Shown piece by piece: positions 1,652 through 49,475 of a stretch of DNA of 56,945 nucleotides (its first letter is position 1; the number at the start of each line of letters is the position of its first letter). The position numbers and the translations under genes were made by a program. Source of the stretch: Chiloscyllium plagiosum (Eukaryota); NCBI RefSeq assembly GCF_004010195.1, contig NC_057718.1, forward strand, positions 93,682,230 to 93,739,174, in the 5' to 3' direction. Below the pieces are notes generated by a model that did not search any database, was not told where the DNA came from, and saw nothing but the letters and a program-made list of their open reading frames with translations.

Positions 1652-2574
1652 CGTTGTGTTATGTCTCACAGTCAGTATGTCAATGTACCTTCAAGAGATA
1701 TACTCATGACATCATCACTGACTAATGATATGTTTGACGATGCTGCCCCCTTAAGAGGTTATTTTGTCCTTTTTTTATTAAGAGCGGTTGTAAAGCAGAG
1801 GAGGAGAGCTGTCTCTAAGAAAGTCAACAATTTGTGAGACCTTGTGATTTATTTTTAAAGTTGTAACAATGGAAGCAGCCTGGGCATGGCCAGCTCTCTC
1901 AGACCAGCCTTTCTCGTCTCTTTTGTAGTTTTCAGGTTTAGCTTTGAGCAGAAGCCATTTGGGTCTCAAAAGAGGTGGTTGTTCAGTGAGTGTTGCCTAG
2001 CTGCTACTCTCTCTGAATTTTCTCTTGATCTTGTTGACTCGTGAATTGGAGAACTGCATGTAAGAATCTGTGTCTGAATTTTCCTTTTTGCCAAATGGTG
2101 TTTATGGGATGTTATTATATTAGTACAGTTAATTAGTAATAAGTACTGTATTTATTATTTAGTTAAGTTTTCCAATAGTTAAGTTATTCTAAATTCCTCT
2201 TTCTTTTGTTTGTGTTTTAACTATAGTGTTTAAATAAATTGTTTTGCTTAATGTCAAGTAGTTTAACATCTGTCAAGTAGTTACATCTGAAACAAGCACT
2301 TCACATCTACCATTGAAATAAGAAAAAGTTAGACTTTAGGCTATCTTCTTAAAATATTTTGAGGGGGCCTGGTCTGGTCCATAACATGTGTGAACTGAAA
2401 TTACAAAGGTCTCATACTCCATCTAACCTCAAACCATAAACCTATAGAAGAACCATGCTTTCCTGTTGTAAACTACCTGCTTAATATTGTCACAGACACT
2501 ATGATAACTGAAGAATGTGGTTTTGTCTACAATATTTAGCTGCACTAAATATATTTTGACTCTTGAACATCACA
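1652..2574 (+). mobile_element. Unclassified LTR-like repeat 'X', copy 2 (interrupted by a solo LTR)
   Basis: Imperfect inverted termini cgttgtgtt ... aacatcaca; similarity to 282-890. Confidence 0.4.
1733..2386 (+). mobile_element. Solo LTR (Gypsy-like)
   Basis: Ends ...GGTCCATAACA; AATAAA at 2233; flanks TATG/TGTG (4-bp TSD, 1 mismatch); collinear with 49948-50563. Confidence 0.75.
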
Positions 2575-3259
2575 ATATCCCTATCTAATTTCTTAGGGAG
2601 ATAACATAAGCATTTCTGCATCAGGAAACACGATGACTTTGCTATTTTACATTAAACGTACATCATGCTTGCACAGTAGCCTCCTAAAGAAGCTCTAATC
2701 TCTTTATGGCAGGTACTTGGAAAACTAATGGAAGACCGAGTGGACAACAGTTTTGGACAACAGAGAATTTAGACAAAGGAAAAGTATCTCATTCTTAAAC
2801 AAATAATTTCTGTGAGTACACTTTGCTGTATAGATCTATAGATACAATATTTAACACTAGGAAAGCAGAACTAATTTATTTTTGATTTAGAATATACTTT
2901 CCGACAAAACAAAACACATTTCTAAAATTGCCTTAATTACAAGAAAGAAATCAATGCAATGTAGTGATGAAGCTAGTGCAATGCAGAAGTGAAGTTGTGG
3001 GGAGGAGGGGAGGGTTGCTGATATATTCTATTCCTAAATGTCAATCGAAAAGTAACAGTTTGTCAAGCCAGTAGCTGCAGAGTTTATGATGCTTAAAGGA
3101 AGAGCAGTTACACTGAAATGAAGTCAGGGACACATGGCTTAAGGTGATACATTTTAAAGACGGAATCATGGATGCATTCACACTTGGATTTCAGCGAAGA
3201 CGATTGAATTGAAGATCACTTGAGGTGATGAGACCTACCCTCTGCTCATGTGGGAAATG

Positions 3260-3995
3260 ACCTTGGCATTTAGGAAGTGGTACTGGAGGACTGGAGAATT
3301 GCAAACATTCTGAGGAAGACCCGAAACGTTATCTCTGATTTCTCTCCACAAATGCTGCCAGACCTGCTGAGCTTTTCCAGCAATTTCTGTTTATGTTGCA
3401 AACATTACACTCTTGTTCAGGAAAGGGTCCTAAAGGTAAGTCCAACTATTGCAGATCAATCAGCTTGACCCTCAGGGTGGGGGAACATCAAGATACAATT
3501 ATTCTGGATAGAAGTAACAGCCTTGTGGAAAAATGTAGGTCAATTCAGAGAAGTAAGCATGGACTCGGTAAGGGCAAATCATGTTTATCTAACATGCTAG
3601 AGATTTCAAAGAGTTAACCAATGAAGAGTTAACGAACAACATCAAGATGGCTGATGTGATGTACATGGACTTCCAAAAAACATTTGATACAGTGCCACAA
3701 AACAGACTTATGAGTAAAGTTACAGATCCTGGAATAAAAGGGATTGTAATAATATGGATATAAAGTTGGCTGAGAGATAGGAAACAGAATATTTGCTCAT
3801 GCTTTTTTTGGGCCAGAAGGAGAGTTGTAATGAAGTTCTTAAGAGATCAGTATTGAAACCCTTTCTTTTCCATATATCTGATTTGGTGATCATTTCAAAG
3901 TTTGCAGATGACACATAAGTTGGGAGATTTGTAAATTTTGAGAAGGACAATGTAGAACTTTAAAAGGATGTTGGCATGTTGGTGGAGTGGGCCAT
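3260..3995 (+). mobile_element. Decayed CR1 ORF2 reverse-transcriptase fragment
   Basis: V.EDWRIAN, NY...ISLT, HG..KGKSCLSNMLE, DV.YMDFQK.FD.VP and SKFADDT motifs across frameshifts. Confidence 0.85.
3310..3395 (+). mobile_element. Short Penelope-derived insert (family C), hammerhead with deleted stem II
   Basis: 11-bp TSD TTGCAAACATT at 3299-3309 / 3396-3406; begins CTGAGGAAGACCCGAAACGTT. Confidence 0.8.
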
Positions 3996-4047
3996 AAATG
4001 TCTTAATTATTCTGAGGTAGTCTTCTGCCAACTCCCTTTTTTCCTGA

Positions 4048-4225
4048 TCTGGAGATGCCAGTGTTGGACTGGGGTGGACAAAGAGAAGTCAACCAATACC
4101 AGTTTACAGACCAACACGTTTATTTGAAATCACAAAATTTCAAAGCGCTGCTCCTTTGTCACCTGACAAAATCTTGTAATTTCAAATTAACCTGTTGGAA
4201 TGTAACCTGGTGTCATGTGACTTCT
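4048..4225. mobile_element. Degenerate fold-back Penelope-derived element (family B)
   Basis: ggagatgccagtgttggactggggtggacaaag... followed by an inverted arm aacctgttggaatgtaacctggtgtc; same layout as 44453-44657. Confidence 0.7.
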
Positions 4226-4289
4226 ATCCTTTTTTCAGAGAGTCAATGCTATCTGTATTTCTAGAGTTTCTTCATTGGACACCCTTGTA

Positions 4290-4980
4290 TCACTTCACAA
4301 AAAGAATCAGGACCAAGTCATTCATCTCTTTAAGTCTGATCTGCCCAACAATATAATTGTAGCTAATTTTCTACCTTAATGCAAACTTTCCTCGCAATCC
4401 ATACATTAATGTGCCCTCTAACCTGAATGATCTTGGGGATGTGCAGCAACTTGAAGATTGTACTTGAGATGAACCTTGTAAGTTATTGAGTATCTGTTAC
4501 TGTCCACTAAAACTTAAAGAAAACTTAAACAGATCACCCAAGCATTTCACCTTACAATTAGAAAAGATACTGCCCCATTTCCCTCAAGTCCATCAGTATC
4601 CAGTCATCTATCATAAATGAATACCCATTGCTCTCTGGTTAGAGCATGCCAAAGACTCACAGTCTTTCAAGTGAAAAAAGGCCTTCATAACTCAATCCTA
4701 AATGGCCTAAAACTGATTCCTAGTTTGTTGACACCCCAGCCAGGGAAAACGTCCTCTCAGAATCTACTCTGTTGAGTCATTTGATAATTAGTGCTTCAGT
4801 TAGCTCAGCGGTCTTCAACATATGTTTACCCAATCACTCCATCTGAAACAAACACTCTTTCGCAGGAATCAACTAGTGTACCTTTGTAAATTCTAAAGCC
4901 TAAAACAAAATGTCCATTCTTAAATGAAATCCCACTGCTTAACAATCCAGAGCGTACTCATTGTTGCACTAACTACATAT
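4290..4980 (-). mobile_element. Old CR1 3' fragments
   Basis: Degenerate similarity to minus-strand CR1 ends at 28282-29270 and 38293-39225. Confidence 0.45.
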
Positions 4981-5789: not shown

Positions 5790-6737
5790 AATGGATGTTG
5801 GGTCAGTGAATGTTGGCTCAGTGAATGTTGGGTCACTTGATTTTGGGTCAGTTAATGTTGGGTCAGTGAATGTTGGATCAGTTGATGTCATGTCAGTGGA
5901 TGTTGAGTCAGTGAATGTTGAGTCAGTGAAATTTGGGTCAGTTGATGTCGAGTCAGGAGATGTCAGGTCAGTGGATGTTGTGTCAGTGAATGTTGGGTGA
6001 GTAAATATTGGGTCAGTGGATGTTGGGTCAGTTGATGTCGCGTCAGTGGATGTTGAGTCAGTAGATGTTGGGTCAGGTGATGTCGGGTCAGTTGATGTTG
6101 GATCAGTTGATGTCGGATCAGTGGACGTTGAGTCAATGAATATGGGGTCAGTGAATGTTGGGTCAGTGGGTGTTGGGTCAGTGAATGATAGGTCAGTTGA
6201 CATCGGGTCAGTGAATGTTGGGTCAATTGATGTTGCGTCAGTGAATGTTGAGTCAGTAAATGTTTGGTCAGTTGATGTTGGGTCAGTTGATGTTGGGTCA
6301 GTTGATGTTGGGTCAGTTGATGTTGGGTCAGTTGATGTTGGGTCAGTTGATGTTGGGTCAGTTGATGTTGGGTCAGTTGATGTTGGGTCAGTTGATGTTG
6401 GGTCAGTTGATGTTGGGTCAGTTGATGTTGGGTCAGTTGATGTTGGGTCAGTTGATGTTGGGTCAGTTGATGTTGGGTCAGTTGATGTTGGGTCAGTTGA
6501 GGTTGGGTCAGTCGATATTGGGTCAGTCGATGTTGGGTCAGTGGATCTAAAGTTAATGGATGTTAAGTTAGTGGATGTTGGGTCAATGAATGTTGGGTTA
6601 GTGGATGTTTTGTCAGTGGCTGTTGGGTCAGTGGCTGTTGGGTCAGTGGATGTTGAGTTAATGAATGTTGAGTCGATGGATGTTGGGTCAGTGGATGTTA
6701 AGTTAGTGAATGTTAGGTCTGTGAATGTTGGGTCAAT
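5790..6737. repeat. 15-bp minisatellite (GGGTCAGTTGATGTT)n, about 63 units
   Basis: About 15 perfect units at 6266-6500 with degenerate flanks; source of the TDPTS, VGSVD and MLGQL repeat ORFs. Confidence 0.97.
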
Positions 6738-7955: not shown

Positions 7956-8439
7956 AATTGCTTCTGGAGTCTAATCATATGCTGGGTTGATGTGAACACT
8001 CTGCAATACCCTCTGACACTGGGTTCGCTGTCAGAGATGTGGGTCAGATACATGGCCCCTTCTTCATATTTACCCAGGAATTATCGCCTCGGTCAATATC
8101 TGGTTGAACTCAAGAAATTAGCCAGTGTAACCTGAGCTGAACACCACAATCAAAACCCTCAACCAATTCCACCCAACTCTAACTCTCTCTCATCGCAATG
8201 TTTTGATCATGTGATTTGGGAGGACTGAGAATTTCAAAGCCACGGGCAATCTTCCCAGCTGTCATTGCGAAGGAAAACTCATTTCCTACTGCACCCACCC
8301 CGCAACTTTGCCTTCTGTGACTCTCCTTGTGCCAAATCCTAATCTAAAACTATCTTCCTTCCTCTATGTGTAGGAAAGCTAGCATGTGGGAATGAGGAAT
8401 CAAGTAATTTCAGAAATTCAAGCAATCATCTTCAACATC

Positions 8440-8712
8440 ACCATCCAAATCTATCTAGAAAGTCAAGAGCAGCAGGTCCATGGGAGCCTTGCAAGTTCCC
8501 CTTCAAATCACTTCCCAACTTGGAAATATATTGCCATTCCTTCAGTGTCACTGGGTCAGAATCCTGGAGTGCCCTTCCAACTGACATTATGGATCTAATT
8601 ATACCCCAAGGAGTGCAGTTGAGGGCAGTTCGCCACCATTTTCTCAAGGGGTGTTTAGGGGTGGTCAATAAATGGTGGCCCAGCTAGTGATATCACATTC
8701 CATGATGAGTTT
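8440..8712 (+). mobile_element. LINE-B 3' end
   Basis: Collinear with 55680-55970 (cttggaaatatattgcc.ttccttcagtgtc...ttctcaaggg...caataaatg). Confidence 0.8.
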
Positions 8713-9835
8713 GAACCAGATGAGATGGGATGTTAGTTTGAGCTGATGGGACCAGAGCAAAAGGGCTGTGGGTGGGTAAGGCGACATGGCTTAGCAGGAA
8801 AAGTGGGCAGGTTTGCACCTCAATGACTCTCCTTCACTGTCTTCCTTCTTACCATTGCTCCCAGAACTCGCTGTTCTCCCTCACCTTTCTCAAATGTTGG
8901 TGTTGTAAGACCCGCAGCTCAATAGCGTACAAATTGAACAGCATTAAACCAACACAATAAGTGGCAGATTCCCAATTTATTTTGCCAGTGTCTATCAAAA
9001 TCTAAGTGATAAATAATTGTCAGCTTGGTTTCTGAAAGATACAATTGACTTGTCTGGTAGCTTTGTGTGCATTCTATGTGAAAGCTTTCTGTAACAAATT
9101 TGGACTTGCCACTGATCAGGTTCAATCCTTCTTTTATGTGGTCTGAGACTCATTAATGACAGTTGGCTCACACAGTGCTCCATATCTTCTCGCGCTCTAT
9201 ATGACCTGGGGGTGAAACTGAAACACCCTTGTAATCCATAACAGATCTCCACATATTTCTTCAATCACTTTAAAATGTGCAATATGTTAGCACATATCAA
9301 ATGGTTTAAATCCTTAAGTGGCTTCATTCCACCGGGAGACAAACACATGATCAGTACTTGGTTCAATTGGTACAGCTGATCTCTACATAATAAGATAATC
9401 TAAAATTAATGAACATGTCAGCAGTGGGTTGATTTATTTAATCTAATTTAAATAAAACATTTCCTGTATTCTTCCAGGGGAGATCTCCTCTCTCTTCAGT
9501 CTTCTGTCTTTTTCTCCATTCCTTGAGTATTTCCCGTTTCCAAAAATAAGGTGTCCTTTTGCTGACAGTATCACTCTTCCTCATTCGCACTCGTTCCAAA
9601 GAACAGAACTTTTATCCAGAGCATGGAATGGGCAGTGTTTGACTGGCTGTGCAAACAAAAGGTAGAAACAATTTTCTTGCAGTGACACTTTGTCTGAATG
9701 CCATCTTCCAACTCAGGCAAATATTAATTATTGCTGAAGCATTCAGCATTATAAATAACTCCCATTTTCAAGGCTGCATTTATCAGCACTGTCACTAGGG
9801 GCGCAGCAATTGTGCATGAGACCAGCCACTGCAAA

Positions 9836-10352
9836 CACATGATCAGTACTTGGTTCAGTTGGTACAGCTTATCTCTACATAATAAGATAATATAACATTA
9901 ATGCAGACTTGCAGAGTTACATTGTACTTTGCTCAAAAACTGCATGAATTCATGTAAGACTCTGTTATCTCACTTTTTTAGTGTACAATCAGTCTAAACA
10001 TTATGGCAAAGACAAAGAACACAGGGGGCTAACACCTTCAGCATATTGTCTACCTAACACCAATTGTTACAGTTAACCTGAGAATGCAACTTTTAAAAAA
10101 AGGTTTTGTGATTTACACATGAAAGAAGTGGAACTATCATAGTATTCTAACAGATGAAAGTCACAACAAACAAGTAAGGTATTATTCAATGTATAATTTC
10201 AGTTACATCACGCTGTAAACTTTTGCTATAAATTCTGTGCCTGACAATTGTGCCCTCCACAACCACCTGATGAAGGAGTGGTGCTCTGAAAGCTACTGCT
10301 TCCAATTAAACCTGTTGGGCTATAACCTGGTGTTGTGTGATTTTTTTAACTT
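9836..10352 (+). mobile_element. Penelope-like element (family B) 3' fragment with captured local DNA at its 5' end
   Basis: 9904-10352 is collinear with 14200-14654; hammerhead motif at 10264-10298; 12-bp TSD AGCCACTGCAAA at 9824-9835 / 10353-10364. Confidence 0.85.
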
Positions 10353-10454
10353 AGCCACTGCAAAGCTATGGAACAACAGCTGCCAGGACCAAAGATGGCA
10401 CCGCCCATATAATAACAGTGCTGTTTGGAACTGACACCTGAACAGTCATTTGTA

Positions 10455-10555
10455 GCCTTTCCCAATGAAGGGCTTCTGCACGAAACATCAGTTTTCCTGT
10501 TCCTCGGATGCTGCATGGCCTGCTGTGCTTTTCCAGCATCACTCTAATCTTGACA
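10455..10555 (+). mobile_element. Short Penelope-derived element (family A), degenerate hammerhead
   Basis: ccaatgaagggcttctgcacgaaacatc...cctcggatgctgc...tgctgtgcttttccagc. Confidence 0.75.
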
Positions 10556-10768
10556 TTGGTAGATTCAAGCCCAGCCTGTGGATAGGAAGAGAAATGGGAA
10601 CAAATGGGAATGCAACTTCAACAATGAGAGAGCAAGCAGTCAACCTGCGACTTCTGTTCAGGGAGAAATAATACCACTTGTTTAACTGTTATAGAACTGC
10701 CTTGTGCATTTTCTACTATTGGATGTACAGCGCTAGAAATGATTCCGTTTAATTAGATATCTGGGCAC

Positions 10769-10940
10769 ATTGTAAAAGCCCATCTGGTTCACTAACATCC
10801 TCTCAGGATGGAAATCTGCCTTTCTTACCTGATTTGACCTATATGTGAGTCTTAACTGCCCTCTGGGCAACTAGTGCTGGCCAATAAACACTGACCTAGC
10901 TAGTGATGCCTGCATCCCATGAAGAATGTTTTTTTTGAAA
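10769..10940 (+). mobile_element. SINE-B, 3' half
   Basis: Matches 470-660. Confidence 0.75.
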
Positions 10941-10977
10941 AGTCAGTGCAGAGCAGATCTTGATTTAATTGAAGGGA

Positions 10978-11315
10978 TTTTTTTTTACTCATTTATGGGA
11001 TGAGGGCATTGCTGACTGGACCAGCAATAATTGCTCAGAGGACAATCAAGAGTCAACCACATTGCTGTGGATCTGGAGTCACATGTAGGCCAGACCAGAT
11101 AAGGATAGCAGTTTCCTTCCCTAAAGGACATTAGTAAACCAGATGGCTTTTTCCCAACAATCATTAATGGATTAATAGTCATCATTAGACTCTTAATTCC
11201 AGATTTTCTATCGAATTCAAACTCCATCGTGGTATGATTTGAACTCAAGTCCCCCAAACATTGCCCCAGCCTCTAGATTAACAGCCCAGTGATAATATCA
11301 CTAGGCTACTGCCTC
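10978..11315 (-). mobile_element. SINE-B, near full length
   Basis: Reverse complement of 300-662; tRNA-like head gaggcagtagcctagtgatattatcactgg; poly-A tail. Confidence 0.85.
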
Positions 11316-11559
11316 AGCAAATGTGCTGAATGACCAATTTAGGATATGCTACCTTTCCTGCAAGTGATGGAAGATTGTTTTTCCACAGTTTTCCTCTCAT
11401 TTTCCGCACCAATTTAATTTTGTCTCCTCTAACTGTTGACTCTTGTATATGTGGCATGTATGCTACTCTTTATATGTTTCTCATGATAATCAATATTCCC
11501 TGAATAGGTATCCCCGATGGCTCCATTAGGAGCACTATGCCTTGTGTTGGAAAATGACA

Positions 11560-11918
11560 GGTTCACACTCCCACTCCAGTATGAGAGAGGGCTGTACTGT
11601 CAGGGGCATCATCTTTCGAATGAGGCATTCAGTTGGTGCCTTATTTGCTCTCTCTGAGATAGATGTAAATGGCATGACATTGGCTTTGAAGAAGAGCAAT
11701 GGAGTTATCCACGGTCAATATTCATCCCTCAACCACCATCACATAATACTGATTGTCTGATCTTGACCTCATTTCTGTTAGTAGAGGCTCGCTGTGTGAA
11801 AAATGGTTGCCATGATTCATACATTACAACCCTTCAAAAAGCTGGCTTGCTGGCTGTCAAGTGCTTTGAGATATCCAGTCGTCATGAAATGGTGCTACAT
11901 AAATCTAAGTCTTCCTTG
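11560..11918 (+). mobile_element. DeuSINE (SacSINE1-like)
   Basis: cccactccag...ctgtactgtcagggg..catctttcgaatgag...tttgaagaagagca..ggagttatcc...ggtgctacataaat. Confidence 0.75.
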
Positions 11919-13261
11919 CTACAGAGCAATAAAGATGGGAAAACCGAACAGTTCTTTTCTCCAATTTGCCAATACACATCAAGGTATAGGTATCCTTTAT
12001 CAAAGTGTAACTTAGAGGCACTGAAGATCATTTGTGGGATTGATCAAACTGGCCTGTAATCATGAACTATCTCAACACAAAGATGGGATCAAACTAAGGA
12101 CCTTGACATCCCACAAATCTCGACATAGGGTGGCAATGATGGATGTGAGCTCTGAACCGGCCATTAATTTTATTAGTGAGCCATTTAGTTCATTCAGCCC
12201 TGCCCTCAGCTCTAAAATAGGTCCAACTGGTATAAGCAAAACTATAAACACGCCAGACCCTGCAGAGGTGACGGCACAGTGGTGTATAATCAGGAAAGGA
12301 TTGTCCTGGATTTCTTAACATTGACTCCAAGCACCATGAAGTCTCATGGCATTCAGTCAAACATGGACAAGGAGACCTTCTACTGAATACCACATACCAC
12401 ACCTTCCCTCAGCTGAGGAATCCATGTTCCTCCATTTTGAACACCACTTGGGGGAAATGTGGAACTGAGCAATGGTGCAGAATGTGCCAGTCTTCAGTAT
12501 CCGTCTCCAAGAGTGGATCGGCAGCACCACTATTTGCCAGAGCTTTTCAAGTCCTAAAGGATAGCGCTGCTGGACCGGACCTGCTGAGCTTTTCCAGCAA
12601 TTTCTGCTTTTGTAGATGTTGGACTGGGTTTGCTGCAGGTAGTGAAGGGACCAGCAAAAGAGAAAAAAAAACTTGACACCATCCTCACCAATATGCTTGC
12701 CACAGATGCATCCGTCCATTATAGAATCGGTAAGAGTGACCACTACACTGCCATTGTGGAGACAAAGCCCTGCCTTCACGTTGTTAATACTTCATGTTAT
12801 GTTTGTGGTTCTAAATGGGAGAGATCCAGCAACTCAGGACTGGACATCGATACGATACTGTGGGCCATCGATAGCAACAGTATTGTCCTCCAGCACAATC
12901 TGTAACTTCATGGCCTGGCATATCCCCCAGTCAACCATTACCATCAAGTCAGGGGATTGACCCTGGTTCAATGGAGAGTGCAGGAGGGCATGCCAGGATC
13001 AGCACCAGGAGATGCCAGCCTGGTGAAGCCCCAAAACAGGACTACTTGCAGGCTAAGCAGTAAGTAAAAGCAATTTCGTATTCAACAGATCAGATCGAAG
13101 CTCTGCAGTCCTCCCATATCCAGTCATGAACGGTGGTGGTCAATGAAAAAAATCATTGGAGGAGAAGGCTCCAGAAATATCCCCAACGTCAATGACTGGG
13201 GAGCTGGCCCATCAGTGCAAAAGACAAGATTGAATGTTGCAACAACAGTCAGAAGTGCTGA

Positions 13262-14654
13262 GTACAGAATCCTATGTGGATTCGTGCAGTTTTTAAGCAA
13301 AATAAATGTAATTCTGCAAGTACAAATTCACCCCACAAACTTACAGGCGAGACACAAGCTGCAATCGACAGGGTACCTTCATTGTCCAGTACTTCCCAGG
13401 AGCTGAAAAACTACACCATGTTCTTCGCAGCCTGCAACACATTATCGATGAAGATGAGCACCTCACCAAGATCTTCCCCACACCTCCATTTCTTGTCTTT
13501 AAACAACCATCAAACCTCAAACAGATCATTGTTCGCAGCAAGCTGCCCGGCTCTCAGGACAACTCCATACAACCCTGTCACGGCAGGTGCTGCAGGACAT
13601 GTCAGAGTGTCAACATGGGTACCACATTACACGTGGGGACACCTCCCACCATGTACGTGGCAGGTACTCATGTGACTCAGCCAACGTTGTCTATCTCATC
13701 CGCTGCAGGCAAGGATGCCCTGAGGAATGGTACATTGGTGAGATGGAGCAGACACTACGGCAATGGATGAATGGACACCGAAAAACAATCAACGGACAGG
13801 AGTGTTCCTTCCCAGCCGGACAACACTTCAGTGGTCCGGGAAATTCGACCTCGGACCTTCAGGTGACCACCCTCAAGGTGGACTTCGGTTCAGGCAACAA
13901 CACAAAGTGACAGAGCAGAGGCTGATAGCCAAGTTCGGTACCCATAGGGAGAGCGCACACACACACACACACTTCTATAGAGCCATAGACTCACGTAGAA
14001 CCTCTTTCATACATAAGCTGTCTTTCATACGTTCACACATACACTCCCACACTCACCCTCTCACAGACTTATACCCATTTACATTCACAGTCACACATAT
14101 ACACATACACACACTCTCTCACAGACATTCAAACCATTCTCACCCTGCACACGCACACCCACACCCACACGCACACACACACATATAAGTTTGTGGGATG
14201 AATTTGTACTTGCATAATTACATTTTATTTTGCTCAAAAACTGCATGAATCCACGTGCGATTTTGTAAATCCCTTTTTTAGATTAGAATCAGTCTGAACA
14301 TTGGGGCACAGACAGCCTCACACAGGGCACCTCACACCTTCAGTGCATTATCTGGGCTGACGTGACACCTATTGTTAAAGTTCACTTGAGAATGTAACTT
14401 TAAAAAAAGTTCTGAGATTTAAATATGAAAGAACTGAAACCAACATGGTCATTCTAAAAGATGAGAGACAAACAATCCAGGTCTTTTTCAATATATAATT
14501 TCAGTTACATCACACTGTAAACTTCTGCTCTACATTCTGTGTCCTATGATCTTATACTCCGCAACCACCTGATGAAGGAGCAGTGCTCCGAAAGCTAGTG
14601 CTTCCAAATAAACCTGTTGGACTATAACCTGGTATTGTGTAATTTTTAACTTTG
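13262..14654 (+). mobile_element. Penelope-like element (family B): GIY-YIG endonuclease region and 3' pLTR, with an inverted 5' piece
   Basis: ORF 13587-13910 SCDSANVVYLIRCRQGCPEEWYIGE...NGH (GIY-YIG); about 13264-13343 is the reverse complement of about 14186-14267; CA-rich 3' UTR. Confidence 0.9.
14566..14600 (+). ncRNA. Minimal type I hammerhead ribozyme motif (PLE family B), intact core
   Basis: CAC-CTGATGA-A-GGAGC(AGT)GCTCC-GAA-AGCT-A-GTG: stem I CAC/GTG, stem II 5 bp, palindromic stem III AGCT. Confidence 0.8.
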
Positions 14655-14686
14655 ATTTAACAAAGTGTGGCATCAATGAGCCCTAG

Positions 14687-15312
14687 GAGAGAAAGTGAGG
14701 TGCTGGATTTTAGAGTTGAAAAGTGTGATGCTGGAAAAGCACAATTTGTCAGACAGCACCTGAGGAACAGGAGAGTCAACGTTTTGGGGCATAAGCCCTT
14801 CATCAGGAATGGGGAGAGGCTGCAAGGAAAGGGGGCTGAGAGATAAATGGGAGGGTAGGGGTGGGGGTAGGGATGGGGGAAAGGTAGTTGGGAGTGCAAT
14901 AGTTAGATGCAGGTGGGAGGTGATGGCAATAGGTTGGAGTGGAGAGTGGAGCAGATAGGTGGGAAGGAAGATGGACAAGTAGGACAGCAGAACAGGGTGG
15001 TTCCAAGTTGGATGGTTGGACATGAAATGAGGTGGACGGAGGGGAGATGGGGAAAGTAGTAAAATCAACATTGATCATGTGGTTGGAGGGTCTCACGGCG
15101 GAAGATGAGGCATTCCTCCTCCAGGCGTCGGGTGGTATGATTTGGTGTTGCAAGAGGCCCTGGACTTGCATATCCTTGGCGAGTGGGAGGGGAAGTTCAA
15201 GTGATTGGCCATAGAGCAATGGGGTTGTTTGGTGCCCGTGTCTCAAAGATGTTCCCTGACGCATTCTGCATGTTGACGTCCTATCTCTACATCAGGAGCA
15301 ATGGACTCAGGA
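14687..15312 (-). mobile_element. Penelope-like element (family A) 3' fragment
   Basis: Minus strand encodes RRLEEECLIFR..TLQP.....VDF (PLE endonuclease C-terminus); degenerate hammerhead at about 14778-14810; TSD AGCCCTAG at 14679-14686 / 15313-15320. Confidence 0.85.
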
Positions 15313-16090
15313 AGCCCTAGCAAATCTGGAATCAATGGGAGTTAAGGGAAAAAAACTCTCCACTGGTCAGAGCCATACCTGGCACATCAGGAGATCAATG
15401 TGATTGTTGGTGGTCAGTCATCTCAGCTCCAGGACATCCCTGCAGAAGTTTCTTAGAGTAGTGACGTGGGCCCAATCATCTTCATATGCTTCATCAATGC
15501 CATTCTTTCCATTACAAACGAGGTGTTTGCTGATGATTCAGCATCATTCTTGACTCCTCATACTGAAGCAGTCCATGTCCAAACATGGCAAGGCTTGGAC
15601 AAACCCAGGTTTGGACTGACACTTACCAAATAACATGCATCCCACACAACTGCAAAGCAATGGTCAACTTCACTAAGACAGAATTCAACCAGCACCTTGA
15701 CATTTAATGGCATTACCACTGCTGAAACTCACTATTAATATCCATTGACCATAAATTATGACAGAACCAGCCTTATAAATATTTTTGCTACAAGAGCAGG
15801 TCAGAAACAGTGAGTAACTCACCTCTTGACTCCACAAAGCCTGTCCACCATCTACAAGAGACAAGTCAGGAATGCAAGGGAATACTCCCTGCTTCCCTAG
15901 AAACTTGACACCATCCAGGACAAAGCAGCCCGCTTGATTTGCATCACATCCATAAACATTCACCTCCCTCTCACTCAGTAGCAGCAATGTATACTATCTA
16001 CAAGATGCTCAGCAGAAATTCACTAAGGGTACTTAGTATCTTCCAAACCCATGACCTTTACCATCTAGAAGGACAAAAACAACAAACACA

Positions 16091-22364: not shown

Positions 22365-22490
22365 GAAAGAGCTGCAGATGCTGGGAATCAGAAACAAAAA
22401 CAGAAGGTGCTGGAAAAGCTCAGCAGGTCTGGCAACATCTGTGTAGAGAAAGCAGTTAACATTTCAGGTCCAGTGACCCTTCCTCAGAAC
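22365..22490 (-). mobile_element. Short Penelope-derived element (family C) with hammerhead motif
   Basis: Minus strand GTT-CTGAGGA-A-GGGTC(ACTG)GACCT-GAA-ATGT-T-AAC at about 22455-22490. Confidence 0.85.
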
Positions 22491-24452: not shown

Positions 24453-24742
24453 AAGCTCCCGCACAAATCAATAGAAACTATTGTATTAATACAAACAGTG
24501 CAGTGCTGGAAAAGCACAGCCGGTCAGGGAGTATCCGAGGAGCAGGACAATCGATGTTTCGGGCATAAGCCCTCCATTAGGAATAAGGCTTGTGGGCCAA
24601 GGGGGCTGTGAGATAAATGGCAGGGGGGTGGGGCTGCAGGGAAGGTAGCTGGGAATGCAATAGGTAGATGAAGGTGGGAGTGAAAGTGATAGGTCGGAGA
24701 GGAGGATGGAGCGGATAGGTGGGAAGGAAGATGGACAGATAG

Positions 24743-25195
24743 CCCGGCACCGCCTTCCTGACCTGCAGTCTTCTTCTTGACCTCTCCGCCTCCATCCTAC
24801 TCCGACCTATCACCCTGCCCTTCTTTAGGAATGAGCAGAGAGTGTTCAGCAGGAGAAGATAAAAGGTAGGGAGGAGGGACTTGGAGGAGGGGAGTTGGAA
24901 GTGGAGGAGATGCGGTGGAGGGCACCGTCGACCACGTCGCCTTCCTGACCTGCAGTCTTCTTGTTGACCTCTCCGCCTCCATCCTACTCCGACCTATCAC
25001 CCTCACCTTGACCTCTTTCCACCTATCACATTTCCAACTCCCCTCCTCCAAGTCCCTCCTCCCTACCTTTTATCTTCTCCTGCTGAACACTCTCTGCTCA
25101 TTCCTGAAGAAGGGCCTGTGCCCGAAACGTCGAATCTCCTGTTCCCTGGATGCTGCCTGACCTGCTGTGCTGTTCCAGCAATAAAGTTTCAACCC
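24743..25195 (+). mobile_element. Young Penelope-derived insert (family A) with a scrambled 5' end
   Basis: 14-bp TSD AGATGGACAGATAG at 24729-24742 / 25196-25209; CpGs retained. Confidence 0.9.
25100..25135 (+). ncRNA. Minimal type I hammerhead ribozyme motif (PLE family A), intact
   Basis: ATTC-CTGAAGA-A-GGGC(CTGT)GCCC-GAA-ACGT-C-GAAT: stem I ATTC/GAAT, palindromic ACGT, GUC cleavage triplet at 25129-25131. Confidence 0.8.
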
Positions 25196-25527
25196 AGATG
25201 GACAGATAGGACAGGTCGTGACGGCGGTGCAGAGTTGGAAGATTGGGATTAGGATAAGGTATGGGAGAGGAGATAGGGAAACTGGTGAAATCCACATTGA
25301 TCCTGTGCAGAGGGTCCCAAGGCGGAAGATGAGGCGTTCTTCCTCCAGGCGTTGGATGGTTAGGGTTTCGGGCGATGGAGGAGGCCCAGGACCTGCATGT
25401 CCTTGGCGGAGTGGGAGGGGGAGTTGAAGTGTTCAGCTTGGGGATTGTATTAATACCTATGGTACTGGTTCTGATGATGAATCATACCAAACTCGAAATT
25501 TTGTTTCTCTCTCCACAGATACAAAAG

Positions 25528-42365: not shown

Positions 42366-42432
42366 GCTGCTCATGACTCCAATACTGCAGCTGAGCGGGG
42401 GGGGGCTCACAATTTGTTGTCTATGTCTTAGG

Positions 42433-42798
42433 CCATAAGACATAGGGGCAGAAATTAGGCCTCTCAGCCCATCAAGTCTGCTCTGCTATTCAGGAGAAAG
42501 TGAGGTCTGCAGATGCTGGAGATCAGAGATGGAAATGTGTTGCTGGAAAAGCGCAGCAGGTCAGGCAGCATCTAGGGAACAGGAGAATCGACGTTTCTTT
42601 CCTGAAGAAGGGCTAATGCCCGAAACGTCGATTCTCCTGTTCCCTAGATGCTGCCTGACCTGCTGCGCTTTTCCAGCAACACATTTCCTGCTCTGCTATT
42701 CAATCATGGCTGATAAGTTTCTCAATCCCATTCTCCCATGATCCCATTGACAATCAAGAACCTATCTATCTCAGTCTTAAATATACTCAATGATCTGA
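42433..42798 (-). mobile_element. CR1 tail fragment split by a PLE fold-back
   Basis: ccataagacataggggcagaaattaggcc...ttcaatcatggctgataagtttctcaatcccattctccc; reverse complement of 44040-44186. Confidence 0.85.
42493..42688. mobile_element. Young fold-back Penelope-derived element (family A) with intact hammerhead core
   Basis: Perfect 67-bp inverted arms at 42531-42597 / 42622-42688; 14-bp TSD TGCTCTGCTATTCA at 42479-42492 / 42689-42702; CTGAAGAAGGGCTAATGCCCGAAACGTC at 42602-42629. Confidence 0.92.
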
Positions 42799-43553: not shown

Positions 43554-44186
43554 AGGAAGGCAAATGCAAAGATAGCATTATTTTGAGGGGACTTGAATGT
43601 AAAAGCAAGGATGTACTTCTGAGGCTCTACAAGGCTCTGGTCAGATCACATTTGGAGTATTGTGCACAGTTTTGGGCCCCATATCTCAGGAAGGATGTTT
43701 TGCCTCAGGAGCGGGTTCAGAAGAGGTTCACAGAATGGTACCAGGAATGTAAAGCTTAATATATGAGGGACATTTGCAGACTCTGGGATTATACTCAATG
43801 GAGATTAGAAGGATGAGGCGGGGGATCTAATTGAAAGTTGTAGAATACTAAATGGTGTGGTCAGTGTGGATGTTGGGGAAGATGTTCCCATTGGAATGAG
43901 AGACTAAGACCAGTGGGCATAGCCTTAGAGTAAAGGGAAGACCTTTGAGAACGGAGATAAGGAGAAACTTCTTCAGCCAGAGAGTGATGAATCTATAGAA
44001 TTAATTGCCACAGAAGGCTGTGGAGGTCAGGTCATTAAGAATATTTAAGACTGAGATAGATAGGTTCTTGATTGTCAATGGGATCATGGGAGAATGGGAT
44101 TAAGAAACTTATCAGCCATGATTGAATAGCACAGCAGACTCGATGGGCTGAAAGGCCTAATTTCTGCCCCTATGTCTTATGGTCTA
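43554..44186 (+). mobile_element. CR1 LINE 3' portion
   Basis: LRLYKALVRSHLEYCAQFWAPYLRKD; tail cctatgtcttatggtct. Confidence 0.9.
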
Positions 44187-44452
44187 AGATAGTGCTGGCA
44201 CAACAGCATGCCAACTTGTGACATGAACATTCACTCTTACCCACCTGTGGTTCACAGCCAGGTGGGCTGAAAGTCTTGCAACACTCCCCTGCCTGTCTCT
44301 CAATTTGGACATGCCAATTAATAATGTCTCCTCTTGGTCTGGCCTGCTCCCTGTGGATTGTAGTACCCTACATTGATCCTCTCAATAAGAGGTCTATTAA
44401 AATCCCAAACTGGCTACTAAGCTGCTTGTTCCCCACATCATTGCAGTCATGA

Positions 44453-44657
44453 TTTGGAGAAGCCGGTGTTGGACTGGGGTGTACAAAGTTAAAAATCACA
44501 CAACACCAGGTTATAGTCCAACAGGTTTAATTGGAAGCACACTGGCTTTCGGAGCGACGCTCCTTACCACCTGATGGAGCGTCGCTCCAAAAGCTAGTGT
44601 GCTTCCAATTAAACCTGTTGGACTATAACCTGGTGTTGTGTGATTTTTTAACTTTGA
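44453..44657. mobile_element. Fold-back Penelope-derived element (family B)
   Basis: About 65-bp near-perfect inverted arms around two broken hammerhead halves; TSD core ACATCATTGCA at 44435-44445 / 44658-44668. Confidence 0.9.
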
Positions 44658-45539
44658 ACATCATTGCAAGTTACCATAACAAAGGAAACGCAAAAATCTG
44701 GAAAGAAAATTTATCAGTGCTGCTCCACATACGATTTTATTAAAGAATGTAATCGTTACAGGTTAACTATTGACCAAGGATAGAATTAATTTTGTCATGT
44801 TCATTGTCACTTTGGATGGTTCAGAAAATGTTTCACATTGAAACTTTGGTGAGAAGACCATTCCAATCAGTCACTTTATTATTGAGTGTTTAGGTAGCTC
44901 CAATACTGTTGTATCAGAGAACCTTTACTGCCTTGTTCTGTTTGAACAGTGTTGTCACTGAGACTCACATGAGGAGTAGGCTCCCTTTGAAAGACGACAG
45001 CAGACAATGTTGGTGGTGCCAAAGGCTGCTGTGCCTCACTTGGAACAGTAGGGGCCACCACAGTCTGCACAGTCACCTCTACCAAGGCTGAAGACAAACC
45101 TTTCAGAGGAATGTGGACAGGTCTCCACGTTCGTGGCTTGTAAATAAATGTGCACAAACCCCTCTCAGTGGTGTTTACTGCATTCTCTCACACAAATGAT
45201 GATTGATATGTCACGTTTCATGGTCTCCAAAATCCAAATAAAAGATCTTTTTTCTAACCTGCAACTCAAGCCATATTAAGGAGTGTAAGTACATGTCAAA
45301 CTGCCTACTTTTAACTCAATTTTGCTTTCATTGGTGCAGATGTGTTCTGTTTGGGAAGCAGGTAACAGCATTCTATTGGCATTTTGGATTTCTGCTCAAT
45401 ACAGATCTCAGTCTCTTCTGGTTCAGTGAAGATTCTGCTGTTTGTTGGTCTGCTCACCTACAATTTCACCTACTTTTCTCTTTTGAATTGCAAAATCATA
45501 CCCCAAATTAAGAGCGGCTTGAAATTTTTGTCTACCTAT

Positions 45540-47392: not shown

Positions 47393-47742
47393 TCTGCACA
47401 TCCTTAAATATTTCTGTCCAATTTAACAGCCTCGTATTCCTACCTCTTTTCTTTCACTGCTCCCACATAGCAGCTTGCACACTCCTGTATTGGAAGACTT
47501 ATCCTTAACTTCTCTCTCTTCTTGCGGGACAAGGTAAGCACATAGCCCCCAACAGAGGCAGGGCACAGAAGAGGCATCACTAGTTTCAGAAGAGAGCCGC
47601 GGAAAGAGTGAACACTTTGCCAGTTACAGCTTCGAGGCTGCACCCCTGAATTGTCACCCTGGAGTCTGCGTGAGGCACAGGGTGCTGTAACCTCTTGTAA
47701 CCTCTAACCTTGAACATGTTTATGACAGATTGAGGTGAAGCT

Positions 47743-47944
47743 AAATATCACACAACACCAGGTTATAGTCCAACAAGTTTATTTGGAAGCACTTGCTTTT
47801 GGAGCGCCACTCCTTCATCAGGTGGTTGTGAAGGAGCAGAGCTCCGAAAGCTAGTGCTTCCAAATAAACCTGTTGGACTGTAATCTGGTGTTATGTGATT
47901 TTTAACTTTGTACACACCAGTCCAAGACCAGCTCCTCCACATCA
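47743..47944. mobile_element. Fold-back Penelope-derived element (family B)
   Basis: Inverted arms around hammerhead remnants; TSD core AGATTGAGGT at 47727-47736 / 47945-47954. Confidence 0.88.
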
Positions 47945-48291
47945 AGATTGAGGTAAGGCAGAGAAAGAAAAATTGTTCCCATTAACTAATGCAAAACTGT
48001 TCTCTTTCATTAATACAGCGCTGTACCCACAATGTCAATACCATTACAAATGCATAATATTTGTTAATTATTGTCCAACCTGTTTCTTTGCTTAATGATG
48101 GCAATTTTAGATGATGTGTTGGAGCAGGGAAGGAAGAGCAGCTGGGCGGTAACATTCCGTATTGACAGAACTACTCAGTACAAATGTAGCCACAGGAAGG
48201 ACTTCCATGTTAACTGGGCTAGTGTCACTGAAGAATTCTCACTGCTGTATCCAGTGAATACTCTTACCCAAGGTAAGAAATTAGGACTCTT

Positions 48292-48538: not shown

Positions 48539-49475
48539 GTCGTAAGACAATAAGACACAGAAGCAGAGATTAGGCCATTCGGCCCATCGAGTCTGCTCCA
48601 CCAATTGATCATGGCTGACAGGTTTTTCAACTCCATTTTCCCGCTTTCTCCCCATAACCTTTGAACCCCTTGGCAATCATGAACGTATTTATCTCTGTTT
48701 TAAATATACTCAATGATCTGGCCTCCACAGATTCACTACATTCTGAGAGGAGACATTTCTCCTCAGCTACTATCGTAGGGTGTGATCCTTTATTCTAGGT
48801 TTATGCTGTCTGGTCTTAGATCCTCCCAAAAAGGGCAAATAGCACTCCACACTTACCCTGTCAAGTCTCTTAGGAATCTTGGGTGTTTCTATAAGGTCAC
48901 CTCTTATTCATCTTCAATCCAATAAACACAGGCCCAACCCACTTAATCCCTCCTCATACGACAATCCCTCCACATCCAGTATCAGCCTAGTGACCCTTTT
49001 CTGGACTGCCTCCAATACCTATATATATATTCCTTAGATAAGGGGTCAAAACTAGTCAAAGTATTCTAGCTGTGGTCTAACTAGCATTTAGTATTGCTTT
49101 AGCAAAGCCTCTATCACCCCCACCCTGACTCCAAATGCTCTTATACCCCACTCTGTTTGAAATTGAGGCCAACATCACTTGCTTTCCCTGTTCCTTGCTG
49201 AATTTGGATTTGAGCTTTTTGAATTTCACACATGAGGATTCCCAAATCCCTCTGTTCCATAGCTTTGTGCAGTCTTTCTCCATTTAAAAAACGTTCAGCT
49301 CATCCATTCTTCCTGCCAAAGTGTGTAACCTTACATTTTGCCACTTTATATTCCATTTGCACACTCACTTAACCTGACTATATTCTTCTGCAGACTCTTT
49401 GTGTAACCCTCACCACTTGTATTTCCACCTATTGTTGCATTCTGTAGTATGTTCACTTTCCTCATCCAAGTCACT
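48539..49475 (-). mobile_element. Older CR1 LINE 3' portion
   Basis: taagacaataagacacagaagcagagattaggccattcggcccatcgag tail; decayed ORF2 upstream. Confidence 0.85.

Follow-up and report, generated by a model that had tools for sequence, protein, structure and literature searches.

How did a 72-nt piece of non-repetitive chromosomal DNA come to stand, as a second copy, directly in front of a fragment of a Penelope-like element (PLE)? This question is raised by a locus in the window, i.e. the whole 56,945-nt stretch of Chiloscyllium plagiosum DNA analysed here (the features of the locus are all given on the plus strand). An earlier note on this DNA had pointed to a direct pair of 72-mers at 9340-9411 and 9832-9903, and a blastn self-search within the window recovered it (68/72 identical, 94%; E 2.7e-27), with four mismatches at 9366/9858, 9378/9870, 9400/9892 and 9404/9896. 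The note had also placed the second 72-mer and the following PLE fragment within a 12-bp target site duplication (TSD), and the 12-mers at 9824-9835 and 10353-10364 are indeed identical. A shared 12-mer in the 40-nt windows at the two ends was found in only 80/20000 random segments of the window, and chance can thus be set aside as a source of the TSD. The left TSD ends, and the donor begins (9340-9343), with the same four bases, CAAA (9832-9835), which bears out the microhomology noticed earlier; a terminal match to the target of at least 4 nt is uncommon locally (21/2762 positions within 1 kb).

As CAAA is common to the TSD and the copy, the new sequence amounts to 68 nt net (9836-9903, a direct copy of 9344-9411) and the left TSD to 8-12 bp, its last four bases being ambiguous with the donor start. 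The donor end (9411) lies 412 bp to the left of the TSD start (9824). The proposed order of copy and then PLE fragment holds, with the correction that the PLE match begins at 9907 and not at 9904: the junction comparison showed that the three bases in between (CAG, 9904-9906) match neither the donor nor the PLE family, and they may be either untemplated or a slipped repeat of 9912-9914. The extra segment is thus non-element DNA, duplicating sequence near the target, which precedes the 5' end of the element within the TSD; it starts exactly at the end of the TSD and stops 3 nt before the PLE, the other end of which adjoins the right TSD.

Whether the 72-mer is unique was judged from public sequencing runs (21, of which 18 contain this stretch) of what appears to be the window's species (A) and of the relatives B and C. 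Four of the 21 were aligned at 85% likeness: X10 (relative B), X13 and X14 (relative C, one sample) and X5 (species A). In these four runs the depth over donor and copy was 14-61, like that of the unique flanks (18-50 in the bin 9836-9887 of the copy), while over the PLE it reached 7e3 to 1e7. The contigs that cease to match at 9907 numbered 121, 189, 100 and 15, and past this boundary the family contigs continue like window positions 14178-14207, not like the 72-mer. Because of this flank-level depth, and because the family continues differently at 9907, the 72-mer is neither PLE-family sequence nor a dispersed repeat, at 85% identity or more; both had been a concern when the pair was first noticed.

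The structure is not an assembly artefact either, since contigs of another sample and of relative C cross its junctions. The boundary between TSD and copy is crossed by a contig of relative C (X13 record 10, 9594-9935) and by one of species A, from a different sample (X5 record 25, 8963-9936). The two extend for 29 and 30 letters into PLE sequence, where our bridging rule asks for 31; the junction of PLE and right TSD is bridged, with 33 letters, by X14 record 24 of relative C (10320-10455).

The PLE fragment itself (9907-10352, 446 bp) is the 5'-truncated 3' end, or pseudo-LTR (pLTR), of a high-copy element. It aligns at 78% to 14208-14652, part of a longer copy of the same family with the same 3' end (13262-14653), which serves here as a reference only. 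The fragment has no tail, no inverted arm and no GIY-YIG endonuclease. Its last 80-90 bases match four more arms, at 44.5 and 47.8 kb, and the family tail runs on past the shared end point at 47908 and 44486, but not at 10352. Inverted arms with a one-sided tail are present in family copies at 13263-13343, 44450-44657 and 47738-47945. Two of the insertions, 44435-44668 and 47727-47956, are fold-back mini insertions of this family, with TSDs of 11-12 bp and the tail on a single arm. Their TSDs lie at 44435/44658 (11 bp) and 47727/47945 (12 bp, one mismatch), and a second family has one of 15 bp (42478/42688). No TSD was found for the family copy at 14 kb, and the 4-kb copy has only a doubtful T-rich match of 9 bp.

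In the longer copy an inverted arm (13263-13343) is accompanied by frameshifted C-terminal remains resembling a GIY-YIG nuclease (13312-13910). The split frames of these remains have atlas neighbours that carry PF01541 on 40% (score 0.95) and 17% of the members; a Pfam search of four frames of this copy gave no GIY-YIG match. The Cys-rich CxxxxCxxC stretch which precedes the nuclease-like part would, by its sequence, fit the linker described for Neptune and Nematis elements (PMC8557442). The same copy also has a CA-rich stretch at 13955-14185. The window showed no reverse transcriptase (RT) region belonging to this family. In the PLE-family contigs of three runs we observed a joint going back 33-34 bases at 9931-9964, a recurrent short internal duplication in some members.

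A candidate minimal hammerhead ribozyme motif, seemingly decayed, was located by a descriptor scan at 10264-10298: its core is present, helix II has 5/5 pairs with a palindromic GC, and helix I has 2/3. The descriptor, whose definition was taken from PMC4209133, matches as a sequence motif at 10267 in the fragment and at 14569 in the longer copy. Rfam over 8000-16000 returned no hammerhead and two weak unrelated matches, and the folding of three hammerhead regions was not better than that of shuffles (z -0.4 to -1.6). Further matches to the descriptor lie at 22487 (minus strand) and 29979, outside both families examined.

The insertion is old, older than the split from relative C. This relative carries it with the left TSD unchanged (all 7 differences listed for X13 record 10 fall elsewhere), and relative B probably carries it as well. 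None of the pieces listed for B spans a junction. Contigs of B end at 9408 and start again at 9382, a pattern which, with k = 31, an identical repeat of 9379-9411 would be expected to give; others were placed on the copy at 9845-9896. In X10 record 3, also of relative B, 21 letters are unaligned after 9844 (9844-9865) and 9845 is covered by another contig; the copy may have an indel allele here. No empty site in B or C was found among the joints and pieces listed for the four runs, and no joint from 9835 to 10365 among the 15 joints listed (49 others were not); the left flank had 0 matches in metagenome contigs.

Both relatives have A at 9400 and at 9896, so two of the four mismatches between the 72-mers arose in lineage A, and the copy ends at 9903; the remaining two probably predate the species splits, given that 1-2 differences per donor contig are unlisted. 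As A and C differ at 28/964 sites in two unique contigs (2.9%), the duplicate would be roughly twice as old as their split, with wide limits: its pairwise divergence of 4/72 has limits of 1.5-13.6%. Gene conversion between the two copies was considered and none was seen, the changes listed for relative C differing in position (9367 and 9385 in the donor, 9845 and 9881 in the copy).

The suggestion in the earlier note that the duplicate might be regulatory found no support. The 72-mers differ from relative C at 6/144 sites and the flanks at 22/820 (p 0.19 for an excess), i.e. they change no slower than their surroundings, and no constraint was detected. A crude scan revealed no convincing exon or ORF at the donor, which leaves the proposed local transcript equally without support; runs X5-X7 are small and labelled 'DNA?' and might be RNA, but contigs cannot show expression. 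Nothing supports either an RNA template or a regulatory role, and no function of this copy for the host is apparent.

Based on these observations, we suggest, and consider it likely, that the 68 nt are a 5' filler for which nearby chromosomal DNA served as template while the ends of one germ-line PLE insertion were being joined. One TSD, of a length usual for the family, encloses filler and element together, the mark of a single insertion; the 12 bp fit the TSDs of the other copies (11 bp, 12 bp with one mismatch, and 15 bp in the second family). Dating leans the same way: a perfect 12-bp TSD is likelier at the age of the duplicate (P 0.51) than at the apparent age of the PLE (P 0.03-0.10), as is a perfect 8-bp TSD, counted without CAAA (0.64 versus 0.09-0.22), and this would favour a single event. 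Against it stand the PLE arm, which looks more diverged than the duplicate, and the fact that no empty site was seen, so that the state before insertion is itself deduced. The single step and the DNA template are what we infer from the product.

In such an event, the two strands of the target would be cut about 12 bp apart by the PLE endonuclease. Reverse transcription would be primed from the right end and break off after copying 446 nt of the element's 3' end, as the TSD and the truncated fragment suggest. While the left junction was still open, 68-72 nt of chromosomal DNA lying 412-484 bp to the left would have been copied onto a free 3' end. The ends would then have been sealed, with the 4-nt CAAA match at one side and three extra bases at the other, leaving what appears to be a neutral scar. 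Either the PLE RT or a host repair polymerase might have carried out the synthesis.

Two routes lead to this product and yield the same sequence, which cannot separate them. Somewhat short of even confidence, but still our tentative choice, is a route in which the cDNA end pairs weakly with the top strand exposed by resection, extends leftwards and re-anneals to the target overhang at CAAA; it is the route proposed for L1, and a direct orientation from the opposite flank would be expected from such priming. In the other, which is possible though rather improbable when taken by itself, the top-strand overhang of the target would prime at CAAA on the bottom strand of the donor, extend by 68 nt and join the cDNA end, which would echo the two-ended synthesis that builds PLE inverted arms. 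The jump of nascent cDNA during integration formerly proposed therefore survives in part: a templated copy made at integration is still the best reading, while the cDNA-first order is only one of two routes, and the right end of the donor resembles the PLE start no more than chance would allow (rank about 2000 of 9223 at best; three variants ranked 1916-4959 of 9223). As an annealing site for the target end the donor ranks 49 among 113 CAAA sites, no better than others; extended or gapped homology of the two, which GAGAC and CCAC matches nearby had suggested by eye, was rejected on the same ranking.

Could the two parts instead have arrived in two steps? An older PLE insertion, perhaps a fold-back with an inverted left arm like those at 44450-44657 and 47738-47945, might have broken later at or near its left junction; in its repair, without PLE enzymes, the left part might have been lost and 68 nt of upstream sequence filled in by synthesis primed at a microhomology. 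We regard this as unlikely, though there are points in its favour. Palindromes are prone to breakage, and fold-back copies are present in the window. Templated insertions are moreover a general product of alternative end-joining (PMC7407515). The 3' arm of the fragment looks more diverged than the duplicate: it differs from the majority of five other arms in the window at 11/79 positions (the others at 3-7 of 77-79), compared with 4/144 site-lineages for the duplicate (Fisher p 0.003).

This excess shrinks, without demonstrably vanishing, outside CpG. Three of the 11 differences fall in CpG columns, leaving 8/73, of which three are shared with another arm and 5/73 are private; 6/70 would already give p 0.08. 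Much of the excess divergence is therefore CpG or common to other arms, and points to subfamily differences. The repair would also have had to halt no more than about 4 bases from where the TSD ends; the TSD itself is identical at 12/12 positions (8/8 without CAAA, for which P is 0.09-0.22 at the older age).

A bolder proposal is that the PLE's own RT diverted second-end synthesis, which in PLEs often builds the inverted arm, onto chromosomal DNA or local RNA 0.4-0.5 kb away, and that this recurs genome-wide. We find it quite doubtful. The PLE-driven way of duplicating local DNA which had been put forward earlier is not established by this locus, as one of the five family copies in the window has a templated local filler, and one case does not show a PLE-specific mechanism. 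Two further candidates for local capture, 40732-40827/41549-41645 (inverted) and 42426-42798/44027-44189, lie in other repeats and were left out of the count. If such RT-driven diversion were true and recurred in a genome with a very high PLE load, PLE junctions would be a fossil record of PLE second-end priming, itself a poorly understood step, and a standing source of short, long-reach local duplications.

It is very improbable that the PLE RT jumped end-to-end onto a local RNA, either a sense transcript ending at 9411 or an antisense one primed from the target end, which would make the filler a retrocopy in cis. Untemplated additions accompany template jumps of R2, and the three extra bases between filler and PLE would fit such additions. 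Template jumping has been put forward as a model (PMC2912911), and PLEs can capture host sequence (PMC3846280). On the other hand, the donor bears no sign of poly(A), splicing or an exon, none of the 18 runs containing the stretch is recorded as RNA (though the search asked for DNA), and, at 0.4 kb from the target, chromosomal DNA is the simpler source of the copy.

Slightly more improbable still is a 492-bp tandem duplication (9344-9835) at the CAAA microhomology, in which the PLE would later have replaced 412 bp of the second copy and the apparent TSD would be the leftover end of the duplicate. The layout to which this would lead, donor-middle-TSD followed by donor-PLE-TSD, is formally that of the observed sequence, and microhomology is typical of tandem duplication junctions; however, two rare events would be required, and the leftover would have to match a TSD in size by chance (other copies have 11-15 bp) and to start exactly at the usual end point of the PLE family. 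An origin of the 72-mer within the PLE, in a dispersed repeat or in faulty assembly can practically be dismissed: no support for it was found, and at 85% identity or more it is contradicted by the flank-level depth of both copies, by the different family sequence before 9907, and by the contigs of another sample and of relative C that cross the junction.

Several other features of the window were recorded in passing. At 24504-25431 lies a complex insertion of the second, hammerhead-bearing family, in which 24751-24822 is repeated directly at 24938-25009 (96%) and 24817-24903 in inverted orientation at 25029-25115 (98%); it looks like several template switches within element sequence. LINE-like 3' ends at 42426-42798 and 44027-44189 form two nearby inverted copies (94-95%), either a local inverted duplication or two young copies, with a third at 48545-48730 (72%); the first of them is split by the second-family insert with the 15-bp TSD. 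Finally, a 15-bp tandem array of about 63 copies (5792-6735), with long open frames rich in Thr, Asp, Pro and Ser, may be a minisatellite or a mucin-like exon.

The locus records a single fossil event, which suggests that PLE integration can end as LINE integration does, with filler of local origin, though from a donor farther off than L1 typically uses. PLE end-joining is described as poorly worked out, and mechanistic work has been called for (PMC8557442). In its element the locus resembles the EN+ Penelope-like elements, sharing with them the 5'-truncated pLTR end, a minimal hammerhead motif, a short TSD and, in its family, a tail at one end only; inverted arms, the pLTR and an optional tail of 30-40 bp at one end are reported for PLEs in PMC8557442, PMC3846280 and PMC4209133. 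Rotifer PLEs have TSDs of 8-10 bp and capture host DNA between or before their pLTRs (PMC3846280). Those captures are spacers or genes between pLTRs that were moved to new sites, whereas here local DNA occupies the place where the inverted arm often stands. Among titles and abstracts, which leave subscription journals mostly uncovered, no case of a local 5' filler at a PLE was found.

Short templated insertions at break sites offer a more general parallel. The locus shares with SD-MMEJ and polymerase theta insertions a direct-repeat copy of break-flanking DNA, a short microhomology and a few apparently untemplated bases. In SD-MMEJ, however, templates are reported to be hardly used any more at a distance of about 30 bp (PMC7407515), and the donor here is more than ten times farther away. 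Among retrotransposons, snap-back and extra-template junctions are reported for R2 insertions (PMC11331408) and 5' extranucleotides for 14.6% of truncated L1s (PMC2912911), while the chimeras of PMC13174262 involve RNA and not local DNA.

The closest counterparts are the templated insertions of human L1, in which genomic segments of less than 250 bp, typically within 15 bp of the site, are duplicated (22/3598 insertions; bioRxiv 10.1101/2024.08.27.596794), with three more cases in PMC11702581. As in those insertions, non-element DNA near the target would have been copied into the insertion, the duplicated segment is shorter than 250 bp, and the route proposed for L1, with cDNA leaving its RNA and pairing with nearby DNA, could apply. 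Unlike them, the present case involves a PLE and an old germ-line event that more than one species carries, and its template lies 412 bp away, not within the 15 bp or so that are typical of the L1 class without defining it.

The primary study of the extra 5' nucleotides (EX) of the zebrafish LINE ZfL2 is reportedly that of Kajikawa et al. (2012) in Gene. These nucleotides are largely copied from the flanks and are attributed to an 'annealing' pathway of 5'-end joining (PMC4245944, PMC4760211). Here, too, extra bases at the 5' junction would have been copied from flanking genomic DNA, creating microhomology for the final join; ZfL2, however, is an L2-clade LINE studied in cultured cells, with several nucleotides added, compared with 68 nt from a distant donor at our locus. 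The mechanism is thus not new in kind, having already been described for L1 and zebrafish LINEs. With element and filler probably having arrived together, the event appears to work like a templated 5' insertion, whose position at the element's 5' end it shares, and differs from the known cases in the class of element and in its 412-bp reach.
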